Shown in pieces: positions 1,769 to 49,352 of a DNA stretch of 64,000 bases. The position numbers were made by a program, and so were the translations under genes. Location: NCBI GenBank assembly GCA_050747825.1, contig JBOGJG010000277.1, positions 9,791 to 73,790 on the forward strand. Reading direction: 5' to 3'. A model generated the notes under the pieces. That model was not told the DNA's origin. It saw only the letters and a program-made list of their open reading frames with translations, and ran no database searches. The stretch's first letter is position 1; each line of letters starts with the position of its first letter. The stretch comes from Acidobacteriota bacterium. Lineage in GTDB: Bacteria; Acidobacteriota; UBA6911; RPQK01; JBOGJG01.

Positions 1769-2912
1769 GCGTTTGGTTCCTGATATAGTAGCGCGAGACC
1801 ATATCCCAATAATTAATAAATGGGTCCTCCTCGACTAGGGCAAGAAAGCGCTGGGCATGCTGAAGGAGTGAAGTGACAAAGTAACCGGGAACGGTCTCGG
1901 GGTGCGGGCGCCAGTAGCTGAAGTAACTCCGGATCAGCAGGCTGTTCTCATCCAGAGGCAGGCTCCGCACATTTTCGATGAACCTGGGGAAGGTCTCACT
2001 TCGATAGAGATAAAATTCCACGTTGGACAGATAGAATGCCGAAACTTTAAACTCTCGCTCTTTCAAAAACTCTCCGACCAGGCGGAGCGCCTTATCTCCG
2101 CCAAAATCTCCAACCACCGGGATAATGCGGTTCTCTTCCTGCATTTTCTTCAGAAAGCGAAAATGCCTTTCTGAAGCCAGGTAATTGGCAGGCCTGCCCT
2201 TCAAATCCGTCTCTGTGATGAGCTGCTCGTAGCTTGGATAGTAAGGCCGCGGGCGGCGTCCATGACTGCGATACTTGAGACTGAGGTTATCCTCAAAAAA
2301 AGCAGTGGCTACTTGCTTTAGAGCCTGGGCGTCAGTCTTCCTGATCAGATTGGGCGCCGGCCGGCGGATCATTTCCCAGAATTCAGCCAGGTTATCCTGG
2401 AAATAATCCGCATCGGATGAAAAACGGCGGAACTGGCTAACCAGGTCCGAGGCACGGGCAGATTCGTCCGGCCGAAAGCCTTCGGGAAGCGGCTTACCGA
2501 AGAGATAGGATAAATACTCCCAGCGATTCTCCGCCTTCATAAAGAGGGACTTGTAGTACAGGTGCTGCAGGAGATTGTCACGCCGGACATCGACAATGAA
2601 GGCAATCTCAGGCTGAAGATGGGCGATATAAGTGAAGTTCTGGTCGGGTCCGACGCCCAGATAAGCCTGCCCCCTGGCTCCGAGCTCTTCAAGCAGAGGA
2701 ATCACGTGCAGGTAAGAAGTCTCATTGGAAATCAGATTGTTGGTATTGAAGTAGCGAGATCGCTCGCTGAATTCCAGGATCAGGCGCTCGAACTCCCGCA
2801 CAGAGAGAGTCTCTGATGCAGCGTAGGCGGAGGGCTCACCCAGAGGACGGGAGACCGGAAGGACAGCCAAGAGCAACAGTAGGAACAAGATGCGCTTTTC
2901 GGGCAGATGCAT
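1752..2912 (-). CDS. Secreted hypothetical protein with N-terminal signal peptide
   Basis: 386-aa ORF. N-terminus MHLPEKRILFLLLLLAVLPVS is a hydrophobic signal. Conserved-looking core (YLGVGPDQNF...IVDV) whose family I cannot name. Confidence 0.55.
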   Translation of the reverse strand: MHLPEKRILFLLLLLAVLPVSRPLGEPSAYAASETLSVREFERLILEFSERSRYFNTNNLISNETSYLHVIPLLEELGARGQAYLGVGPDQNFTYIAHLQPEIAFIVDVRRDNLLQHLYYKSLFMKAENRWEYLSYLFGKPLPEGFRPDESARASDLVSQFRRFSSDADYFQDNLAEFWEMIRRPAPNLIRKTDAQALKQVATAFFEDNLSLKYRSHGRRPRPYYPSYEQLITETDLKGRPANYLASERHFRFLKKMQEENRIIPVVGDFGGDKALRLVGEFLKEREFKVSAFYLSNVEFYLYRSETFPRFIENVRSLPLDENSLLIRSYFSYWRPHPETVPGYFVTSLLQHAQRFLALVEEDPFINYWDMVSRYYIRNQTPMESP

Positions 2913-2994
2913 TATTCTCGATTATATAGCCGGGCCCAAGTGTCTCCAATATAAAGGAGTCAGCATAAACCTTCTGGCCGGTCTATAATCGTAA

Positions 2995-3759
2995 TTGGGT
3001 ATTATGAAAAAGGCTCTTGCATTCTTGATCGTCACCAGCCTTTTATTGAGTGCTCCGGTCGCTCCCAGCGATGATGATCAGGACGCCCAAGACAGAGCTC
3101 CCGACTCGGAGGAATTCACTTTTTTGCGACTCGTCTATTCAGGGGGCGGCTGGCGCGACTCGAGTTGGGCGACCGATTATCCCAAAGCAGACCTCCAGTT
3201 TTTGTACGGCCTGAGAAAACTGGCCGACTTCACCTTTGTCTCTTCAGAATACAAGGCCCTGCCCCTGGATGATCCTGAGATCTTCAAGTATCCCTTTATC
3301 TATGCCGTGGAAGTCGGCCGGATGTACCTTTCCGATGAAGAGGCCGCCCAACTCCGGGAGCATCTCCTGAGAGGGGGTTTTCTGGTGGTTGATGACTTTC
3401 ACGGCCATTATGAGTGGCAGAACTTCTATTTCCAAATGAAAAAGGTCTTTCCTGAGTACGAGCCTGTCGATCTGCCGCTGTCTCACCCTATTTTTCACTG
3501 CTATCACGACATCGAAGAATTGATCCAGGTTCCGGGAATTCAATATCTGTATAGCGGTCGGACCTGGGAAAAAGGGGGCTATAATGCCCGCTACATGGGC
3601 ATCCAGGATGAGTCAGGGCGCCTCATGGTGATGATCAACTACAATGTCGATCTGGGTGACGCCTGGGAATGGGCGGAGGTCGAAGCTTACCCTCGCGAAT
3701 ACGCGACACTGGCTTTTAAGTTGGGCATGAATTACATCATTTATGCGATGACGCACTGA
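2995..3759 (+). CDS. DUF4159-like secreted protein
   Basis: 254 aa with signal peptide. The FLRLVYSGGGWRDSSWATDYPKADLQF block resembles the DUF4159 family. The family assignment is from memory. Confidence 0.5.
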   Translation: MGIMKKALAFLIVTSLLLSAPVAPSDDDQDAQDRAPDSEEFTFLRLVYSGGGWRDSSWATDYPKADLQFLYGLRKLADFTFVSSEYKALPLDDPEIFKYPFIYAVEVGRMYLSDEEAAQLREHLLRGGFLVVDDFHGHYEWQNFYFQMKKVFPEYEPVDLPLSHPIFHCYHDIEELIQVPGIQYLYSGRTWEKGGYNARYMGIQDESGRLMVMINYNVDLGDAWEWAEVEAYPREYATLAFKLGMNYIIYAMTH

Positions 3760-3772
3760 GGGGGCCGGACCG

Positions 3773-4210
3773 TTATCCGAGTTCGAGAAAGGGCGGCTCT
3801 TTTTTCCACACAATATAATCTTGCAGCGCATGCAGGCCCAGGCAGGGCAGGGCGGTGAAGAGGGTGGCGCGCTCGATCTCCGGTAGGTCATACCGGTCGC
3901 AGAGTTGCTCCGCCGATTGGGCGGCTCGATCAATTTCCTGGCTGGAATAATCGGCCTTGAGCACGAATCGCGATTTCTCAGCCTTCTTTGGCCTGATCGA
4001 GTCTTGATCCAGAATCAGCAGAGTGTTGGGAGGAGGGGGCTTTTTCCACTCCAGGACTTCCGATTCCCTGAGATCCTGGAGGGCCATAATGATGGTGAGG
4101 GTGAGCAGCGCGCTCCCATCTTTCCGGCTCACCGAATAGCGCGGGAAAATGGTCTCTACCATTTTCCAGGCAGCCTTCAGGGCTGCGGTTGTAATCTCTC
4201 GTTCGGTCAT
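3773..4210 (-). CDS. Hypothetical protein, 145 aa
   Basis: ORF whose start overlaps the upstream TPR gene by 4 nt (ATGA), suggesting translational coupling. Confidence 0.4.
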   Translation of the reverse strand: MTEREITTAALKAAWKMVETIFPRYSVSRKDGSALLTLTIIMALQDLRESEVLEWKKPPPPNTLLILDQDSIRPKKAEKSRFVLKADYSSQEIDRAAQSAEQLCDRYDLPEIERATLFTALPCLGLHALQDYIVWKKEPPFLELG

Positions 4211-5187
4211 GGCTCCCCCAACTCGGCCAGCTTATTGCGGATCTGCTCTGAAAAGTTTCCGGGCAGCTTGTGGTAGTTCGGCCTTCGCGATTGGGCCATT
4301 TCTAAGACTTCCCGGTAGGTCCGGGCAGCCCGTTTCTTCTGTCCCAACTTCTCCAGAATCTGGGCGCGGTTCAGATGCAGGATGTAGTTGCGGGAGTATT
4401 TCTTGTGCATCTGTTCGACAATCCTGAGAGCCTCCTTGTAGCGCTTTTCCCGTACGAACAGGACCATCTGCAGAATGCGCGCATCATCGTTGACGAATTG
4501 TCCCCTTTCAGCCGCCCTCTGCAGGTACTCAAATCCACGTTCCTCGCTCCCACGGTAGCCGATCAGAACTGCGATCCACTTGATGTACCATTTGAGATTG
4601 TCAACGATGTACTCGTACAGCCCGACGCTCATGTAGGCGTCGTAATATTCCGGATCTTCTTCAACGAGATCCAGGTGATGCTGATAGGCCTTCTTTCCAT
4701 GCCCGAAAGCCCCCCGGTAACTCCGGTCAATCGTTATGGTGAACGCTCCCAGAAGCCCGTGGGCACTTCCCAGGAAATAGCGGGCGTCCGGATTCTCAGG
4801 GTCCCTCTTCAAGACCGCCTCTGCCAGCCTTTGACTCTCTTCGATATAGCGGAAAAAAGCTTTCCGGCGAGAATCGTCCATCGGCTCTTGGGCCGGGCTG
4901 GTGAAATAAGTAGGAGTGATGAAGCGGTCCAGATCCAGCTCCTGACGTTCCAGCAACTCGCTGAGCCAGACTACCGTAGCCAGGTAGATGGGCGGCGCCG
5001 GGTGCTCGGGAAATTTCCTTTTAAGAGAGGAAAAGGAATCCGCCGCCTGGTCATAATCCAGATTGTAAATGTGATCAAAGCCCCCACGGGCCTGCTTCAA
5101 AAATTCCGCGCTGCGCAAATTCTGTCCAGCGAGCGTGGGAGTCAGCATGAACACCGATAAGATTAGGGAGATAAAGCGAAACATCAT
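4207..5187 (-). CDS. Secreted TPR-like repeat protein
   Basis: 326 aa, signal peptide MMFRFISLILSVFMLTPTLA, helical repeat composition. Overlaps both neighbours by 4 nt. Confidence 0.5.
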   Translation of the reverse strand: MMFRFISLILSVFMLTPTLAGQNLRSAEFLKQARGGFDHIYNLDYDQAADSFSSLKRKFPEHPAPPIYLATVVWLSELLERQELDLDRFITPTYFTSPAQEPMDDSRRKAFFRYIEESQRLAEAVLKRDPENPDARYFLGSAHGLLGAFTITIDRSYRGAFGHGKKAYQHHLDLVEEDPEYYDAYMSVGLYEYIVDNLKWYIKWIAVLIGYRGSEERGFEYLQRAAERGQFVNDDARILQMVLFVREKRYKEALRIVEQMHKKYSRNYILHLNRAQILEKLGQKKRAARTYREVLEMAQSRRPNYHKLPGNFSEQIRNKLAELGEP

Positions 5188-5906
5188 CGATTAGCAAAAT
5201 CAAAGGTATAGAGTATCCCAAGGCTGACCTGCCAGTTGTGCAGTTCGCCCTGAGGCCGAATCGCCGGTACCGCCGGATCAATGCTCTGAGAGGGAAGGGC
5301 GAAATCCGGAACACCCGTCACGTGATCTCGAATATCGGCGCGAAGGCCCCACTTTTCATCGAGCTTTATCTTGACGCCGCCGCCGTAACTGAAAGCAGCC
5401 TTCCATCGGCCTTTCAGTTCCACACTCTGGCCGATCGCCTGATCTCCGGCGTCACCGGAGGCTTGGTAAAAGGAAGCTCCGCCCCCGACTGAGCCAAAGG
5501 GCCGGATCCTGCTGTGACGGTCAAGCGGATAATAGAGAATGCTGTATGAAAGCTTGTGGACGTGATGGTGCCGATCCAGGCGCGGAAGGTCCTGAGCCAG
5601 GTTCTCGAAAGTCATGGGGTGATTGGCATAACTGTACTCCAACTCGGCTCCAAAGTTTTCACCCAGATTTTCCGTGATTCGGGCTCCGGCCACGTACCCA
5701 TTGGCAAAATTGAGTCCCACCAGTTGGGTCTGGCCGCCTTCCTGCGCTGTGGCAAAGGTGTTGTCGTCCAGATAGCTCACACCAAAAAACGCCGAGACCT
5801 CCCACTTGTCGAATTCAGGGAAAATACCGGGAACCCGAGGCTGAGCCAGCGTCGGAGACGGCAGCAGGAACAGCAGCATGAGAGTGAGCCGACCGTGCTT
5901 TAGCAT
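5184..5906 (-). CDS. Outer-membrane beta-barrel protein (OmpA-like barrel family)
   Basis: Signal peptide, alternating hydrophobic beta-strand pattern, C-terminal ...LGILYTFDF barrel signature. The start is set at the internal Met (MLKHGRL); the track ORF extends to 5939. Confidence 0.6.
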   Translation of the reverse strand: MLKHGRLTLMLLFLLPSPTLAQPRVPGIFPEFDKWEVSAFFGVSYLDDNTFATAQEGGQTQLVGLNFANGYVAGARITENLGENFGAELEYSYANHPMTFENLAQDLPRLDRHHHVHKLSYSILYYPLDRHSRIRPFGSVGGGASFYQASGDAGDQAIGQSVELKGRWKAAFSYGGGVKIKLDEKWGLRADIRDHVTGVPDFALPSQSIDPAVPAIRPQGELHNWQVSLGILYTFDFANR

Positions 5907-42304: not shown

Positions 42305-42422
42305 TTAGGTTTTGAGATTAGATATACTTTACTCTTCCAGCAAGGTGGTACGCGCGTTTGTACTGGCTCCGTACTTCTGATATAAAATGACGCTTTTTAA
42401 AGCATGCCACTTGAGGTGTGGA

Positions 42423-43601
42423 ATGAATAAGAGATATGTAGCTCTGTTATTGCTCGTTGTGCTGGCTCCGATCGGCATCCTCTCCTGTAACGGGGGCACT
42501 GGCGGGGCGGACGGTGTATTTGCACAGATGCAGAAGGAACGCCGCGCTTACGTGGCCACCGTACCGTTCGAACCGCCTCTAATCTTTCAGGCCGGCGGGC
42601 AGATGGTTGGTCCGGATGCGGAACTGGCGCGCCGCGTGGTTGAGAAGATCAATGAGAAGCTGGGTGCCAGCGGTATCGAGTTGGACTTTATCACCCGCAA
42701 CTACAGCACTATCATTCCTGCCGTGCAAAACCATGAGGCCGCCTTTGGACTCGGTGTTCTGGGAATAACGGACCAGCGCAAGCAGCACATCCAGTTCTCC
42801 AATCCTTATTACGTGTCCGAACTGGTGATGCTGATTGACCCCGCCCATAAGGATATTCGTTCCAATCAGCTCGACGGTGCCAAGATTGGCGTACGATCCA
42901 ACACGGCTGCCGCCGAATTCGTGCACAAGCAATATGAGCAAAGTACGGTCCAGGGATTCGGCACTCTCGACGATGCTGTCCTGGCTCTGAGACGGGGCGA
43001 CATTGACGCTGTCATTGACGATCGCAACATGGGCGCCTTTGCCCTGGCCACCCTTCCTGCAGTAACTCAACTGGAAATCATCCCTGGTGTCATTGCCGAA
43101 ATCCAGTGCGCCGTGGCCGTCGCTCAGGGAAACAGTGAGCTGCTCGACATTGTCAATGAGGTGATCGCCACTGTTCAGGCCGAAAACCTTTATGCGCAGT
43201 GGCTCAATGAGCAACTAGGCGAGCGGCTCGCCCAGCTCGCCCAGGTGGAAGGGCGACACGCCGCCCGAACCGAAAAAGAACGTCAGGCTCGAGCCCACCG
43301 CCAGGTTGTCATTCGGGTCTCCAAAGATGCCTCCAATCCGTTCGATATTTACCGTTTCGCCAACCTGAGCTTTGTGCTGACCAATCGTGACACCGGGCAG
43401 ACTTACAGTACCTCGCGGATTCATTTTCAGGGCCGGGTGGGGGTCAGCAGCACCAATGTGCCTCCGGGCACCTATTCGCTGTCTCTCCCCAGGTTCGGAT
43501 TTAATGCGGGCTCAGTTGCAATCGGCTCTCAAGACGCCCGCCAGGTGAACATCTCGATCCGCCTGGGCTCCAATAACCAGGTCTCAGTCACAAAAAGCTA
43601 G
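42423..43601 (+). CDS. Substrate-binding lipoprotein (type-3 periplasmic binding fold) with C-terminal extension
   Basis: Signal plus lipobox ...GILSCNGG. Solute-binding PBP fold blocks and an extra C-terminal domain of about 120 aa. Start set at MNKRYV. Confidence 0.6.
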   Translation: MNKRYVALLLLVVLAPIGILSCNGGTGGADGVFAQMQKERRAYVATVPFEPPLIFQAGGQMVGPDAELARRVVEKINEKLGASGIELDFITRNYSTIIPAVQNHEAAFGLGVLGITDQRKQHIQFSNPYYVSELVMLIDPAHKDIRSNQLDGAKIGVRSNTAAAEFVHKQYEQSTVQGFGTLDDAVLALRRGDIDAVIDDRNMGAFALATLPAVTQLEIIPGVIAEIQCAVAVAQGNSELLDIVNEVIATVQAENLYAQWLNEQLGERLAQLAQVEGRHAARTEKERQARAHRQVVIRVSKDASNPFDIYRFANLSFVLTNRDTGQTYSTSRIHFQGRVGVSSTNVPPGTYSLSLPRFGFNAGSVAIGSQDARQVNISIRLGSNNQVSVTKS

Positions 43602-43627: not shown

Positions 43628-43656
43628 TTGACACTCGTAAAATCCTGCCTAATACT
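43628..43656 (+). promoter_or_regulatory. Sigma70-type promoter upstream of the porin gene
   Basis: TTGACA (43628-33), 16-nt spacer, TAATAC (43650-55). Confidence 0.5.
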
Positions 43657-43661
43657 CTTAG

Positions 43662-43690
43662 CTAATGAAATTGATTTTCAATTTCATTAG
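43662..43690. promoter_or_regulatory. Perfect 13-bp-arm AT-rich palindrome (operator candidate) at the porin transcription start region
   Basis: CTAATGAAATTGA-TTT-TCAATTTCATTAG, immediately downstream of the -10 element. Confidence 0.55.
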
Positions 43691-43721
43691 TTGGAATTGA
43701 ATTCGAGGGACGAATGGGGAA

Positions 43722-43750
43722 GGAGCGCGTTGCTCGCAGCAACGCGCTCC
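43722..43750 (+). other. Perfect 13-bp GC-rich stem-loop in the porin 5' leader
   Basis: GGAGCGCGTTGCT-CGC-AGCAACGCGCTCC. A further 7-bp hairpin (GACTCTC-tatttg-GAGAGTC) sits at about 43793-43812. The leader from -10 to the ATG is roughly 195 nt. Confidence 0.5.
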
Positions 43751-43852
43751 CGTTGGCGCCAGGTTTTGCTCGTTTCCAACGCCGTCCTCAGTATAAGGAC
43801 TCTCTATTTGGAGAGTCAAACGTCCCTCCTCACTAAACAGAAGGAGGAGAAG

Positions 43853-45238
43853 ATGAGGAATTATTGGTTTGGTTTTCGGGGTGCGGCCAGAGCATGGCTT
43901 CTGCTGTATGTGGTCTGGTCAACGGCGGGGGCGGTCTGGGGCGCTCAACGAGACGAGGCGGATGAATTGAAAGCCAGAATCGAGGAGTTGGAGAAACGCC
44001 TGGGGCAGTTGGAAACAAAGGAGGAGGCGCCCGCTTCTGAGAGAACCGTCAATGTGGAAGAATTAAGGCGCCAACTGGACATCCTGGCCCAGGAAGTCGA
44101 AAGGATGCGTGCCGGAGAGCAGAAGATAGAGCTAAGCGAGGCGCAAAAACGGGGACTGGGACTGGCCCCTTCGGCGGGAGCGACTTACGAGAGGCGACAG
44201 GGAATTTCCCTTTCCGGCTACGGAGAGATGCTCTACCAGAATCGCGATGATGAGAATGAAAGCGGGTTACCCAGTTCAGATGACACTCGACTCGACTTTC
44301 TCAGGCACGTCTTCTACATGGGATATCGTTTCAGCGACAAACTGATTTTCAATTCGGAAATCGAAGTCGAGCACGCCAATGAGATCGGCGTCGAGTTCGC
44401 CTATATCGATTTTCTGGCCAACGAACATATCGGCCTGCGAGGCGGAATGTTGCTGCTTCCTATGGGCCTCACCAACGAGTTCCATGAACCAAATGTCTTC
44501 CTGGGAGCCAAGCGTCCTGAGACGGAGACCCGGATCATCCCCTCCACCTGGCGGGAGAACGGATTTGGAGTGGTCGGCAGGGCCGGAATCTTTAACTACC
44601 GCGCTTACGTTGTCAACGGACTCAACGCCGCCAATTTCAGCGCCAGCGGTATCAGAGGCGGGCGCCAGAAAGGCAGCCAGGCCAGGGCGCAGGATCTGGC
44701 CTTTGTGGGACGCCTTGACGTCAACCCTACCCCCGGCGTCTTCTTTGGCGGATCACTTTACCGGGGCGGCTCGGATCAGGGGCAATTCGAGGTAAGCGGC
44801 AGCGAGTTGAGCGTCGATACACTCATCGGGGAAGTGCATGGACAGGTTCAAGTCCGGGGTCTGGATCTCAGGGGCCTTTACGCACAGGCCCAACTGGACG
44901 ATGTCGCCGGCCTGAATTTGGCCCTGGGCCGGTCAGGCTCACAGGCGATTGCCCAGACTATGGAGGGCGGCTATTTGCAGTTTGGGTATAACGTCCTCTC
45001 CCAGCATACAGAGCGGTTTCGGCTGACGCCTTATTACCGGCTCGAAATGGTGGATACTCAGGCCGAGCTCCCGGCCGGCTTCACCTCCAATGAGGCGCAG
45101 GACGGCATTTTTCATACCATGGGATTCGAGTTTCGTCCCATTCACGGCGTGGTGGTCAAGACCGACTACCAGTGGATACGCAATGAGGCAAATAGCGGGC
45201 TGAATCAGTTCAATGTAAACCTGGGCTATGCCTTTTGA
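43853..45238 (+). CDS. Outer-membrane porin with N-terminal coiled coil (OprO/P- or DcaP-like)
   Basis: Signal peptide, an approximately 70-aa heptad coiled coil, then an amphipathic beta-strand barrel ending ...NVNLGYAF (C-terminal Phe). Start set at MRNYWFG with an AAGGAGGAG SD. Confidence 0.6.
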   Translation: MRNYWFGFRGAARAWLLLYVVWSTAGAVWGAQRDEADELKARIEELEKRLGQLETKEEAPASERTVNVEELRRQLDILAQEVERMRAGEQKIELSEAQKRGLGLAPSAGATYERRQGISLSGYGEMLYQNRDDENESGLPSSDDTRLDFLRHVFYMGYRFSDKLIFNSEIEVEHANEIGVEFAYIDFLANEHIGLRGGMLLLPMGLTNEFHEPNVFLGAKRPETETRIIPSTWRENGFGVVGRAGIFNYRAYVVNGLNAANFSASGIRGGRQKGSQARAQDLAFVGRLDVNPTPGVFFGGSLYRGGSDQGQFEVSGSELSVDTLIGEVHGQVQVRGLDLRGLYAQAQLDDVAGLNLALGRSGSQAIAQTMEGGYLQFGYNVLSQHTERFRLTPYYRLEMVDTQAELPAGFTSNEAQDGIFHTMGFEFRPIHGVVVKTDYQWIRNEANSGLNQFNVNLGYAF

Positions 45239-45304: not shown

Positions 45305-45901
45305 GTGACTGAATTTATGCACCAATGTACTAAGCCTTTCCGCCACGGCCGATGGCGGCGCCGCACACTGGCTGTCCTTTTTTTCTTGTACCCGGCCGGT
45401 GTACTCGGCGGACCGGTTATCAGCCGCGAGGAGGCTCTGGCGGCCGCCTACTCGGAGGCGGCTATTGAGGCGGAAAGGATCTTTTTAACTGAGCGCCAGC
45501 TCAGGCAGGCGGAAGCTCTCTGCGGAGAGGAAATCCCCAGCCCGCTGATTGCGCGTTACACAGCCATTCGAGATGGGAAGATCGTCGGCCGTGCCTATAT
45601 AGACACTCATGTAGTCCGAACGAAGAACGAAAGTCTCCTCATATGCCTGGACCAAGCAGGCAAGGTCAGGAGAATTGAAGTCACTGCCTTTATGGAGCCG
45701 CCGGAGTATCAGGCCTCCGAAGCCTGGCTGAATCAGTATCGGGATAAACATCTGAGCGATGATCTGCATTTGCAGCGCTCGATCCGTGCCATTGCCGGAG
45801 CCACGCTTACAGCCTTGGCTGCCAATCGCGCGGTGCGGCGAGTGCTGGCTATCGATCGCGTTCTCACACAGACCGTCGCTCATTCTCGGGCGAAGAAATG
45901 A
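45305..45901 (+). CDS. FMN-binding domain protein (flavinylation substrate), exported
   Basis: N-terminal Arg-rich signal/anchor, FMN_bind-type domain with flavinylation motif IAGATLTA (the [ST]GAT[LIV][ST] context of NqrC/RnfG/NosR). Confidence 0.65.
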   Translation: MTEFMHQCTKPFRHGRWRRRTLAVLFFLYPAGVLGGPVISREEALAAAYSEAAIEAERIFLTERQLRQAEALCGEEIPSPLIARYTAIRDGKIVGRAYIDTHVVRTKNESLLICLDQAGKVRRIEVTAFMEPPEYQASEAWLNQYRDKHLSDDLHLQRSIRAIAGATLTALAANRAVRRVLAIDRVLTQTVAHSRAKK

Positions 45902-46374
45902 ATACCTGGGAGAAGTGGACTTTTCACATCTCAGCGGTCCTCGTCTCATTGACCGGAGTGGCTTATCTGTGGATGAAGTATCTGTTGGAAGGCAGCGATC
46001 CCTTCAGCGTGATCAATCACCCCTGGCAGCCTTTTTTCCTGCACCTTCATATTGTGGCAGCTCCTTTCCTGCTCTTCATTGTGGGGGTACTCTTCCCCTC
46101 CCATATCCTGGGAAAACTCGGCAAGACGAAGGTGCCCAATCGCCGCTCCGGCTGGGTGACGCTGATCTCTTTTCCCATTATGGCCGTCTCCGGCTATCTG
46201 CTTCAGGTGGTAAACCACCCTCTGCTCCTTCAGATGACCCTGCTGCTGCATCTGGCCGGCGGTGGGCTTTTTGTGGTGTCTTATGCCATCCACCAGGTGG
46301 TCAGCGTCCGCCTCCTCAAAGCCGCCTACGGGCGCAAGGCAGGTGACGGGTGGCAGGTGACGGGTGGCAGGTGA
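45898..46374 (+). CDS. His-rich 4-TM membrane protein (MsrQ-like/DUF4405-like putative b-type haem carrier)
   Basis: Four predicted TM helices with conserved His in TM1, TM2 and TM4. ATGA start/stop overlap with the upstream gene. The C-terminal tail is encoded by a 14-mer tandem repeat. Confidence 0.5.
   Translation: MNTWEKWTFHISAVLVSLTGVAYLWMKYLLEGSDPFSVINHPWQPFFLHLHIVAAPFLLFIVGVLFPSHILGKLGKTKVPNRRSGWVTLISFPIMAVSGYLLQVVNHPLLLQMTLLLHLAGGGLFVVSYAIHQVVSVRLLKAAYGRKAGDGWQVTGGR
46338..46374. repeat. Tandem 14-mer (GGCAGGTGACGGGT) x about 2.6
   Basis: ggcaggtgacgggtggcaggtgacgggtggcaggtga, at the 3' end of the 4-TM gene. Confidence 0.8.
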
Positions 46375-46380
46375 AACAGC

Positions 46381-47400
46381 GTGAGCCATCTGCTGTACTT
46401 GAAAGTCTTTACTGCAACGGCGCTCATGATGCTTTCAGCGCCCAGCGATGCGTTGGTCGAGGTCAAGCGGGAAGTGTTTCTGATGGGCACGCGCTGCACT
46501 CTGACGGCCTACGCCTCTGACGGCACCGGGGGACTGGAAAACCTAGAGTCATTCCTACGTATTCTGGAGCAGTCCGAACGGGAGCTGAGCACCTGGCGAG
46601 CGGATAGTCTTTTCAGTCAGTTGAACCGTCAGCCACCAGGTGTGCCCTTGGGCCTGGACCGTTCTTTATGCCGGCTTCTCTCCGATCTTTTCTATTGGAA
46701 TCGAGAGACGGGATTGGCTTTTGATCCCGGCATCGGCGCTCTTATCGAGGTTTGGGGATTGCGAGAGGGCGGCAAGGTTCCCTCCCCTGAATCCATCGAG
46801 ACAGCCCGCAAGCAGGCAGGGCTCAACTACTTCAGGCTTGATCCCAATCAATGCGAGATCACGCGCACCCAGAACGTTTGGATTGACAGCGGCGCCTTCG
46901 GCAAAGGCGAGGCTCTGGATCGAGTCCATCGATATGCTTCTCAAATAGACAGTGGTCCCTGGATGATTGACTTGGGTGGACAGATCATGGTGAGTGGATC
47001 TCCTCCAGACGAGGAAGGCTGGGAAGTCGGCCTGGCGCATCCCGTACGACGGGGAAAATCGGTCCTGAAGCTGAGGCTCAAGGAAGGATCACTGGCCGCC
47101 AGCGGGGGATCGGAAAGGGATTTGGCGGTCCATGGCGCACGCGTCGGGCATATCCTCGATCCGCGCACCGGCCGGCCGGCAGCCTTCAAGGGCTCAGTCG
47201 TCGTCTGGCACCAGCAAGCTCTCGTCGCCGATATTCTTTCCACCGCTCTTTTCGTCATGGGACCTGAAGAGGGACTCTCCTGGGCCAACTCCAGGCAGGT
47301 GGCAGCCTGTTTTATCTTCCCATCTAGCGACGCCCGTTGTCACGAGATTAGCGCCAGCCTTTCTTTCTCCAGTCTCTTCCCACTGACCACTGACCACTGA
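46381..47400 (+). CDS. apbE: FAD:protein FMN transferase (ApbE family), periplasmic
   Basis: Signal peptide, then ApbE-family blocks (VFLMGT...ALD.GA..KG...ASGG...). GTG start. The C-terminal codons run into the heptamer array. Confidence 0.75.
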   Translation: MSHLLYLKVFTATALMMLSAPSDALVEVKREVFLMGTRCTLTAYASDGTGGLENLESFLRILEQSERELSTWRADSLFSQLNRQPPGVPLGLDRSLCRLLSDLFYWNRETGLAFDPGIGALIEVWGLREGGKVPSPESIETARKQAGLNYFRLDPNQCEITRTQNVWIDSGAFGKGEALDRVHRYASQIDSGPWMIDLGGQIMVSGSPPDEEGWEVGLAHPVRRGKSVLKLRLKEGSLAASGGSERDLAVHGARVGHILDPRTGRPAAFKGSVVVWHQQALVADILSTALFVMGPEEGLSWANSRQVAACFIFPSSDARCHEISASLSFSSLFPLTTDH

Positions 47401-47481
47401 CCGCTGACCGCTGACCGCTGACCACTGACCGCTGACCGCTGACCACTGACCACTGACCGCTGACCGCTGACCGCTGACCGC
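47381..47481. repeat. Heptamer microsatellite (CACTGAC/CGCTGAC)n, about 14 units
   Basis: Direct head-to-tail 7-nt units with two variant bases. No spacers, so not CRISPR. Confidence 0.9.
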
Positions 47482-48009: not shown

Positions 48010-48627
48010 ATGGCAGAAATGAGCGGGTCAATCAGTTCGGGAGTCGCGTTCGGTGAAGCCGAAACTTTAGTCGCTCGGCTGAAAGAAGGGGACGAAAGCG
48101 CGTTCTCCGAAGCTTTCGAGCTTTACAAAGATCTGATCTTTACCGTCTGTTCCAAGCTTCTGGCCGAAAAGGGCGAGGCCATGGACGTCACTCAGGAGGT
48201 CTTTCTGACCCTTTACCGCAAGATCCACTATTTCCGTGGGGAATGTACGCTCAAGACCTGGCTTTACCGGGTTACTCTGAACCATATCGGCAACCGCAAT
48301 CGCTGGTGGCGGCGGCGTTCCAGAGACCGTACTCAATCTTTGGGTCTGACCGTCAACGGGAAAACCATCGATGTGCCCTGCAATAGGGCGCGTCCGGATG
48401 GCCGTTTTTTTTCCCTCGAAGTTCAGGAGGCGCTGCAAAAAGGCCTTCAGGATCTGCCATTTGATCAGCGCGCTTGCGTGATCCTGCGTGATGTGCAGGG
48501 ACTGACTTATGAGGAAATCGCGCAGGCGATGTCCGTGCAGATCGGTACCGTCAAGTCACGCATCGCCCGAGGCCGAGAGCGGCTGCGAGAGCTTTTAAGA
48601 GATTACCGGCCGGGAGCATCGCTATGA
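48010..48627 (+). CDS. RNA polymerase ECF-type sigma-70 factor
   Basis: Region 2 (DVTQEVFLTLYRK) and region 4 (LRDVQGLTYEEIAQAMSVQIGTVKSRIARGRERLRE). Confidence 0.8.
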   Translation: MAEMSGSISSGVAFGEAETLVARLKEGDESAFSEAFELYKDLIFTVCSKLLAEKGEAMDVTQEVFLTLYRKIHYFRGECTLKTWLYRVTLNHIGNRNRWWRRRSRDRTQSLGLTVNGKTIDVPCNRARPDGRFFSLEVQEALQKGLQDLPFDQRACVILRDVQGLTYEEIAQAMSVQIGTVKSRIARGRERLRELLRDYRPGASL

Positions 48628-49352
48628 AGTGTGACCATGTCCGTCTAAGAGTTCACGACTATTTGGACCAGGAATTGTTGCCTGAAGAAAGCCTCGAACT
48701 GAACCTGCATCTGGGGCACTGTGAGGCCTGCAGAACGATCTTTGACGAATACGGCTTTATTAAAGAAGCCATTTCACTGAAAGTAGAGTTGCCGCAGCGT
48801 TCACAGGAACAGATGCGGGCCTGGATTCAGCATCGAGCTCACCGGACGCTGCAGACTCGCCTTTGGGAAGCCTGGGATTTTTTCAGGACCTTTTGCCGGG
48901 ATCTGGATCGCCGTCTGGTATGGTCAAAGCTCTCGGCCACTCCCATTACCCTGGCGTTCTTTTTCGTCATCGTGGCTCAGTTTTCGCATGTGGATTTTTA
49001 CGAATGGACTCATCCTGTTTTCGGAGAGCCCCGGCAGGAAGCCACTCTTCTTCGCAAGCCGATCATCTCCCAGGCCCACGTCCGGCAGCAGAATACGGCT
49101 CTGGAGGGACTTTCAAACGCGGTTTGGAGACTTCCTTATGAGGATTCCCTTTCGCTGGTGGCCAAGATCACGCCCGAAGGCAACGCTCAAATCGACAGCG
49201 TCTTGAACGCCCCCAAGAGCCTGGACCTTCTGAACGCCATCGATCTGAACCTGCGCGAGAGCCAGTTCGAAATGGCTCGCACCGTGGGCAGCCCGTTTCT
49301 GATCTATTCATTTCAGAAGATCGACGTCTACGAATACCAGCGCGGACTGTAA
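48624..49352 (+). CDS. Anti-sigma factor (zinc-finger HxxxCxxC type, single TM)
   Basis: HLGHCEAC motif, a TM helix around residue 105-125, and a 4-nt overlap with the sigma gene. Confidence 0.6.
   Translation: MKCDHVRLRVHDYLDQELLPEESLELNLHLGHCEACRTIFDEYGFIKEAISLKVELPQRSQEQMRAWIQHRAHRTLQTRLWEAWDFFRTFCRDLDRRLVWSKLSATPITLAFFFVIVAQFSHVDFYEWTHPVFGEPRQEATLLRKPIISQAHVRQQNTALEGLSNAVWRLPYEDSLSLVAKITPEGNAQIDSVLNAPKSLDLLNAIDLNLRESQFEMARTVGSPFLIYSFQKIDVYEYQRGL

Follow-up and report, generated by a model that had tools for sequence, protein, structure and literature searches.

This study concerns a group of genes in a 64,000-nt stretch of DNA from an Acidobacteriota bacterium (contig JBOGJG010000277.1, positions 9,791 to 73,790 of the forward strand), referred to throughout as the window. 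An original prediction had singled out three tightly packed genes, encoding an FMN_bind protein, a His-rich membrane protein and the flavin transferase ApbE. These open reading frames (ORFs) were found as described; an ATGA overlap between the first two (aaATGAat, 45898-45901) and a 6-nt gap between the second stop and the apbE start (TGA aacagc GTG) are evident from the sequence itself. The unit is larger, however: it comprises four genes, for a porin, the FMN protein, a four-helix membrane protein and ApbE, and is preceded by a putative metal-responsive operator. The features are as follows (window coordinates).

43628-43656, plus strand: sigma-70-like promoter, with a -35 element TTGACA at 43628-43633, a 17-nt spacer and a -10 element AATACT at 43651-43656
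43662-43690, no strand assigned: operator-like perfect palindrome CTAATGAAATTGA-TTT-TCAATTTCATTAG, read in the sequence
43853-45238, plus strand: porin gene, leading the operon; 461 aa when counted from the ATG at 43853
45305-45901, plus strand: RnfG-like FMN_bind gene, 198 aa from a GTG; true start uncertain, with an ATG at 45317
45785-45805, plus strand: predicted flavinylation motif R161-A-I-A-G-A-T167, acceptor T167 at 45803-45805
45898-46374, plus strand: gene of the four-helix inner-membrane protein, 158 aa, ATG start, predicted di-haem cytochrome b
46381-47400, plus strand: apbE, 339 aa, GTG start, predicted secreted ApbE flavin transferase

As listed, the porin ORF runs from a TTG at 43691 to 45238. 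The ATG at 43853 is the likelier start, because it is preceded by AGGAGG and because the signal peptide begins there.

Conservation of the operon

A scan of one genome per species yielded relatives of the four-helix protein in 194 genomes, and the best 80 loci (designated, like other contigs below, by L numbers) were kept for counting neighbours by tblastn. The FMN gene adjoined the four-helix gene in 80 of the 80 loci and ApbE did so in 77. ApbE was not found by tblastn in L014, L016 and L020, which belong to Woeseiaceae and a marine acidobacterium; L016 has only ~1.7 kb of downstream sequence. Three of the 80 contigs were too short to be evaluated for the porin. Among the remaining 77, the porin gene lay directly upstream and in the same order in 74, and tblastn did not detect it in L062, L066 and L077. 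One locus (L005) carries a rearranged yet complete set in the order ApbE-porin-FMN-4TM. The homologue contexts show the same set, in which the four-helix gene and apbE are accompanied by genes for a ~450-aa and a ~180-aa protein. Identity to the porin of the window is 40-55% for the ~450-aa proteins, and the FMN protein orthologues, present in all 80 loci, are 38-68% identical.

This co-occurrence is far above chance. Adjacency and natural fusions of the four-helix domain to ApbE support the view that the genes of the putative FMN_bind substrate, the membrane protein and ApbE are transcribed together as a conserved unit, in line with the expected conservation of gene order in related genomes. 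The porin had been regarded as a dedicated gene directly upstream of the other three. Its dedication to the unit is borne out, but it is the first gene of the operon rather than a mere neighbour.

Beyond the four genes, no conserved neighbour and in particular no conserved reductase or transporter was seen among the neighbouring ORFs of the loci, where the counts are rough because a simple ORF caller gave antisense shadow ORFs in GC-rich loci. The other neighbours were lineage-specific housekeeping genes only (M16 peptidases, NhaC, Mrp/NUBPL, PAP2, UvrD, and BipA). Hosts are mainly Vicinamibacterales and other Acidobacteriota, with a few Gemmatimonadota, Latescibacterota and Woeseiaceae.

The four-helix membrane protein

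The 158-aa protein of the window, of which an identical copy is recorded from an Acidobacteriota metagenome-assembled genome, had no match in Pfam (E up to 0.1) or NCBIfam; this includes PF14358, PF01794, PF01292, PF03929 and PF16357. Its AlphaFold (AF2) model (pLDDT 94.2) contains the four helices anticipated from the sequence (residues 3-29, 44-74, 82-104, and 108-151), and in structure comparison it best matched di-haem cytochromes b. In alignments of 31 and 100 family members, five histidines were invariant: H41 in a periplasmic NHPWQP loop, H51 and H69 in the second transmembrane helix (TM2), and H118 and H132 in TM4. The original prediction had placed histidines in TM1, TM2 and TM4. The pairs on TM2 and TM4 are indeed conserved among homologues, but the TM1 residue (H10) is not and is often Asn in relatives. 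Direct reading shows a basic TM2-TM3 loop and a basic C-terminus, which suggest an N-in, C-in topology; H41, H51 and H118 would then be on the periplasmic side, and H69 and H132 on the cytoplasmic side.

When 100 family members were scanned one by one (E up to 1), 22 touched PF01292 (Ni_hydr_CYTB; best 2.9e-6) and 20 touched DUF4405 (PF14358; best 2e-3), while any other family was matched by at most nine. MsrQ (PF01794) was not among the 25 families listed for these members at this threshold. One relative has a precomputed PF01292 assignment. These weak matches suggest that the family is a divergent branch of the two-haem cytochrome group. The specific likeness to MsrQ or DUF4405 carriers that had been proposed did not hold, as the window protein matches neither PF01794 nor PF14358 and has four helices against the six described. 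We regard it as a member of a new family of predicted di-haem cytochromes b.

A full search with a hidden Markov model (HMM) extended this family to 1443 clusters at 50% identity. Several clusters are natural fusions to ApbE, in which a fifth hydrophobic helix separates the two domains. A fifth helix after an N-in, C-in four-helix domain would place ApbE outside the cytoplasm. Alternatively, the four-helix protein might not be a cytochrome at all but an accessory of flavinylation that, for instance, exports flavin or FAD or docks ApbE and its substrate at the membrane; in that case the conserved histidines would bind metal or flavin. We give this little credence and prefer the di-haem cytochrome b suggested by the model and the paired histidines.

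In one relative (P0345, 445 aa), the gene call joins the protein to an outer-membrane barrel domain, Phenol_MetA_deg (PF13557). Such a single protein would be physically odd and is probably a gene-calling artefact, although it hints that other outer-membrane barrel families can neighbour the four-helix cytochrome.

The flavoprotein and ApbE

A profile of the FMN protein family found the RnfG structures 9eri_G (E 2.8e-7) and 7zc6_G, aligned over ~125 positions. In direct comparisons with PDB sequences, the FMN protein, the porin and the four-helix profile gave coiled-coil or rhodopsin noise or nothing. Aligned to RnfG, the family motif IRPIAGATLT falls on its TGST/TGAT flavinylation site, where the acceptor Thr positions coincide, and the protein of the window reads I-R-A-I-A-G-A-T167-L-T. 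Across loci, the motif takes the form R-[PAT]-I-A-G-A-[T/S], with AGAT in 77 cases, TGAT in six, and AGAS and VGAT in three each. The canonical motif is D-x-x-[S/T]-G-A-[S/T], whose Asp has been described as strictly conserved; in one target that was tested, however, replacing this Asp by Ala had only minor consequences (PMC12052999). The motif found here departs from this canon at two positions, with Arg in place of Asp and usually Ala in place of Ser/Thr at -3 (80 of 89 counted matches to the G-A-[T/S] motif). The orthologues retain G-A-[T/S] and with it the acceptor Thr/Ser. An exported FMN_bind protein with an intact flavinylation motif had been claimed at this locus: the GATLT string and its conserved acceptor are there, but the canonical motif is not. 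With this qualification, the three features on which the original prediction depended (the histidine pairs, the acceptor and the co-occurrence of the genes) are all conserved.

By direct reading, most FMN orthologues have cleavable-looking signal peptides (…SAQ/GG…) and no obvious anchor. The FMN protein is predicted to be the substrate of ApbE, with T167 as the flavinylation acceptor. Most orthologues score under the Pfam FMN_bind threshold, so annotation-based surveys would probably have called their ApbE an orphan.

The ApbE of the window matches PF02424 over its full length (202.4 bits against a cut-off of 25.6; positions 1-266 of 266), and its NCBIfam ApbE score of 98.6 bits is under the equivalog cut-off. 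Its N-terminal hydrophobic stretch, KVFTATALMMLSAPSDA by direct reading, has its counterpart in the fifth helix of the fusions. The protein is accordingly predicted to be an extracytosolic flavin transferase, which agrees with the secreted ApbE originally proposed.

At the 3′ end of apbE we noted a 7-nt tandem repeat, CTGACCG/CTGACCA (47383-47481; 14 copies, 94% matches), which begins within the final codons, includes the stop and extends ~80 nt further. TGA is present in every unit, and a change in copy number that is not a multiple of three would alter the C-terminus of ApbE.

The porin

The product of the first gene has a signal peptide, a coiled coil in the periplasm (approximately residues 35-86) and a beta-barrel of 16 strands, whose sequence ends in …NLGYAF. 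The fold is that of an OprP-like 16-strand barrel, at 9-14% identity to its structural matches. There was no match to Porin_O_P or any other porin family in Pfam or NCBIfam, nor any among PDB sequences. The family is strongly conserved and large, with at least 2584 matches; the same kind of search gave 118 for the four-helix family. The densest invariant motifs (NEFHEP, RPETE, and PSTWRENG) are located in the long loop that joins strands 5 and 6, which in classical 16-strand porins is the constriction loop. The eyelet may accordingly be substrate-specific, with many Glu, His and Arg residues.

We also considered whether the porin itself might be flavinylated in the manner of DUF3570, since that of the window contains S-A-G-A-T-Y (residues 160-165, numbered from the TTG at 43691). 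This was rejected, as orthologues read SAAATY or PAASKVY at the site and the motif is not conserved. A lone close paralogue of the porin (58% identical) was observed in L008 (7001-8422), without genes for the FMN protein, cytochrome or ApbE and without a recognisable box.

Putative promoter and operator

In front of the porin gene, a consensus scan detected a sigma-70-like promoter with 10 of 12 consensus matches. It is a consensus match only, made plausible by its position directly before the palindrome, which starts 6 nt after the -10-like hexamer. Within the palindrome, two 7-1-7 boxes that overlap each other can be made out, TGAAATT-G-ATTTTCA and TGATTTT-C-AATTTCA, both of the form TGAnnnT-N-AnnnTCA. 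Overlapping 7-1-7 repeats are the layout of Fur-family operators. The palindrome occurs only once in the window (chance expectation 0), and no further copy of the box was found in the window at up to three mismatches. No riboswitch was detected in the ~190-nt leader; the Rfam matches in the window amount to one tRNA elsewhere.

The same 21-mer or close variants were found upstream of the orthologous operon in L009, L015, L013, L018, L019, L010, L076, and L082, and Vicinamibacterales have TGAGA-N5-TCTCA palindromes at the equivalent position. With looser, clade-specific patterns, a box was present within 450 nt of the first operon gene in 63 of 75 evaluable loci; the strict TGAnnnT-N-AnnnTCA definition gave boxes in only 39. 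Near the operon start the density was 2.22 boxes per kb versus 0.023 per kb elsewhere in the same loci, a ~98-fold enrichment that is partly circular because the patterns were derived from the regions counted. The exact 21-mer common to genomes with ~50% identical proteins is not circular. At loci without a porin, the box sits before the FMN gene.

The palindrome is thus a putative Fur-family-type operator overlapping the promoter, and the operon is probably under the control of a metalloregulator. This element had escaped the original prediction and gives the only functional direction available, namely metal, probably iron, acquisition.

In 17 loci, two operator-like palindromes lie 62-66 nt apart, at ~5.7-6.1 kb in the loci (including L027, L029, L032, L033, L036, L038, L041, L046, L052, L054, L070, L072, L079, and L088). 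This spacing, about six helical turns, suggests cooperative or looping repression.

Genes accompanying the operator

The company of the box was surveyed in metagenome contigs scanned for the exact 21-mer. Of 80 matches, 32 AT-rich ones were set aside as possible chance hits and 48 were kept. In 22 of the 48 contigs, the 21-mer preceded genes for ZnuA-type binding proteins, many with His/Asp-rich loops of the zinc type and with the zinc proteins AztC and AdcA as best NCBIfam matches. It stood beside TonB-dependent receptors in four contigs and beside fur-family genes in three (L133, L151, and L163); the latter best matched Fur, then PerR, then Zur in NCBIfam, all under cut-off. In one contig (L155) it preceded feoA-feoB. 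Two more porin operons were also among the 48, one of which (L140) has a fur-family gene directly upstream, followed by the box, the porin, the FMN protein and a 4TM-ApbE fusion.

Further candidates for regulon members were found beside the operon itself. In a Vicinamibacterales subclade it is flanked by two genes that are divergent from the porin operon, each with a TGAGAC-N3-GTCTCA box in front. One encodes a Fe2+ transport protein of the P19 type (PF10634) and the other a CbiX-like protein with a chelatase fold (in L031 at 4079-4813 and 2785-3747, respectively, both on the minus strand; also in L048, L044, and L067). In the same subclade, a DUF6787 gene precedes the operon. The window was searched for homologues of the fur, feoB, TonB-receptor, P19 and DUF6787 genes found elsewhere, and none was present.

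Since ZnuA-type genes are the commonest company of the 21-mer, the regulator could be Zur-like. The same electron-transfer hardware would then respond to limitation of zinc, or of Mn or Cu, for example as a zinc-starvation porin with a redox accessory or in Cu(II) reduction. The TGAAAATGATTTTCA variants at L010, L076 and L082 presumably match the actinobacterial Zur box as well. The ZnuA contigs, however, are Firmicutes-like by GC content and lipoprotein signals and thus represent a different lineage from the operon carriers, whereas higher-GC contigs of the Gram-negative type pair the box with feoAB, TonB receptors and Fur-like regulators. Moreover, P19 adjoins the operon, and a flavin/haem chain has no obvious role for zinc, which is not redox-active. 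We consider control by Zur or another non-iron member of the Fur family unlikely. The box company as a whole points to a metal-starvation regulon, with iron more likely than zinc for the carriers of the operon.

In the Firmicutes-like contigs (L097, L113, L117, L149, and ~18 more), the 21-mer TGAAATTGATTTTCAATTTCA lies between divergent ZnuA-type and MatE genes. The same operator sequence is apparently used in very distant lineages.

Proposed function

We propose that the four genes form an operon probably repressed by a Fur-family metalloregulator and probably serving reductive metal acquisition, most likely of iron, and we hold this proposal to be evenly balanced between right and wrong. Periplasmic ApbE would covalently attach FMN to Thr167 of the exported RnfG-like protein. 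The four-helix protein would hold two b haems, with H51 and H118 flanking the one nearer the periplasm and H69 and H132 the one nearer the cytoplasm. It would supply the flavoprotein with electrons drawn from the quinol pool of the membrane or from a donor in the cytoplasm. The reduced flavoprotein may in turn reduce a substrate arriving via the OprP-like porin, such as an Fe(III) species, or keep iron ferrous, and the metal would then be imported by transporters encoded elsewhere. The sequences and models show the genes, their order and conservation, the folds, the invariant residues, the fusions, and the conserved operator with its company elsewhere; haem binding, flavinylation, the electron donor, the way in which electrons flow, and which metal and terminal substrate are involved are our inferences. 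A link between flavinylated systems and assimilatory iron reduction has been published (PMC8238504), and a ferric substrate is proposed by analogy with PepSY/FoxB, MsrQ-VIT1 and P19 systems tied to that process.

Several observations weigh against this proposal: (i) the FMN protein matches FMN_bind (PF04205) marginally, at 22.2 bits against a cut-off of 22; (ii) its motif lacks both the Asp described as strictly conserved and the Ser/Thr at -3; (iii) the spacing of the TM2 histidines is 18 residues, above the 13-14 typical of di-haem cytochromes b; (iv) the box enrichment is in part circular; (v) the commonest company of the 21-mer is ZnuA-type genes; (vi) the NCBIfam scores of the Fur-family and binding proteins are all under curated cut-offs; and (vii) the operon encodes no terminal reductase, iron-binding protein or inner-membrane iron transporter.

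The lack of an iron importer in the operon, together with the presence of an outer-membrane component, would also fit a respiratory (dissimilatory) outlet. Here the flavocytochrome would serve to conserve energy, and not to feed the cell, by unloading electrons on a soluble acceptor that crosses the porin (for example a flavin or quinone shuttle or a metal chelate); flavinylated proteins elsewhere do serve extracellular electron transfer and respiration (PMC8238504). Yet the metalloregulator-type operator, the iron-uptake regulon mates and the single small flavoprotein fit assimilation better. Multihaem or multi-flavin wires are absent, and a 16-strand porin, judging from its fold, would be too narrow for a protein conduit. 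Such an outlet therefore seems quite unlikely to us. The same regulon mates, being metal-uptake genes, speak against a role in periplasmic redox defence or repair under a PerR-type regulator, in which superoxide or peroxide would be handled as by the four-helix cytochrome b561 CybB or by MsrPQ-like systems. No catalase, peroxidase or Msr partner was present at any locus, and a substrate-specific porin would be left unexplained; we rate this as the most improbable of the alternatives.

Within the preferred reading of reductive metal acquisition, a bolder version may be put forward tentatively, though we doubt it: a TonB-independent, envelope-spanning route of reductive iron uptake, made up of a Glu/His-constricted iron-starvation porin, a flavinylated RnfG-like protein and a four-helix di-haem cytochrome b, would be a main iron-acquisition device of abundant Acidobacteriota (Vicinamibacterales) in soil and sediment.

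Relation to known flavinylation systems

ApbE-associated transmembrane cytochromes feeding extracytosolic flavoproteins are already published as a general class (PMC8238504, PMC11334425). The original remark that this class had not been characterised consequently applies to the four-helix family only.

Among the closest published systems are the DUF4405 cytochromes, six-TM proteins with four conserved His predicted for two b haems, which occur in Proteobacteria and Firmicutes and are paired with Flavodoxin_4 and a flavin transporter (PMC11334425). As in these, the membrane protein gene of the window stands beside apbE and a flavinylation substrate, there are four conserved membrane His, and electrons are proposed to cross the cytoplasmic membrane to an extracytosolic flavoprotein. 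In contrast to them, the protein has four helices, no PF14358 match and an RnfG-like FMN_bind partner, and the operon type has a dedicated porin, a putative metalloregulator operator and hosts in Acidobacteriota, Gemmatimonadota and Latescibacterota.

With PepSY-like (FoxB) and MsrQ-like flavinylation systems, which have links to Fur regulation, iron transporters and assimilatory iron reduction (PMC8238504), the operon shares an FMN_bind protein, ApbE and a (here predicted) haem-b membrane protein, and likely the logic of a periplasmic ferric reductase. It differs in that the membrane protein matches none of PF03929, PF16357 and PF01794, in helix count and His placement, in lacking an NAD-binding domain or VIT1 partner, and in being led by a porin gene.

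Four-helix di-haem cytochromes b of PF01292 (FdnI, HyaC, and CybB) are set apart from the window protein by the Pfam match itself. FdnI and CybB carry a TM1 His, whereas the family described here has no conserved TM1 His but two invariant His in TM2. The invariant periplasmic NHPWQP loop is likewise specific to it.

The FMN protein has the same domain as the RnfG/NqrC subunits, with the flavinylated Thr in register. Unlike these, it occurs outside an Rnf/Nqr complex, has the motif R-x-I-A-G-A-T instead of D-x-x-[S/T]-G-A-T, and mostly carries a cleavable-looking signal peptide without an obvious anchor. The porin, finally, differs from the phosphate-starvation porins OprP/OprO and the coiled-coil porin DcaP by the lack of a porin Pfam match, by constriction-loop residues that are mainly Glu, His and Arg (NEFHEP, RPETE), and by a gene that is probably co-transcribed with a redox module.

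Neither the four-helix family nor the R-x-I-A-G-A-T RnfG-like partner, the OprP-like porin or the operator was found in PMC8238504, PMC11334425 or literature searches. As far as these two surveys show, no earlier flavinylation module came with an outer-membrane channel of its own and an operator recognisable as metal-responsive.

Neighbouring genes

The gene just 5′ of the operator (42387-43601) encodes a family-3 solute-binding protein (SBP_bac_3, GlnH/ArgT-like) with an additional C-terminal region of ~130 aa without domain match. Approximately 600 nt beyond the end of apbE, the genes of an ECF sigma factor (48010-48627) and a zf-HC2 anti-sigma factor (48624-49352) share 4 nt; this pair is not kept beside the operon in other genomes. 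In 18 Vicinamibacterales loci, the porin gene is immediately preceded, on its own strand, by a gene for a small predicted membrane protein (DUF6787, 103 aa; e.g. L003 5264-5575 and L031 ~5053-5358). The DUF6787 proteins are 80-100% identical between loci, and boxes are present on both sides of their gene.

Implications

The operon adds a new four-helix membrane partner to flavinylation-based extracytoplasmic electron transfer, a young field, and offers a compact three-protein system for the study of haem-to-flavin electron transfer. Catalogues built on Pfam would miss it, because three of its four proteins have no or only a borderline Pfam match. For the same reason, TonB-independent uptake, if true, would explain part of the unassigned 'orphan apbE' genomes. 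The module is present in at least 194 species-level genomes of poorly studied phyla that are abundant in soil and sediment, and its description closes an annotation gap in abundant soil phyla. If the link to iron holds, it would provide a testable hypothesis for the iron supply of Vicinamibacterales and their relatives.

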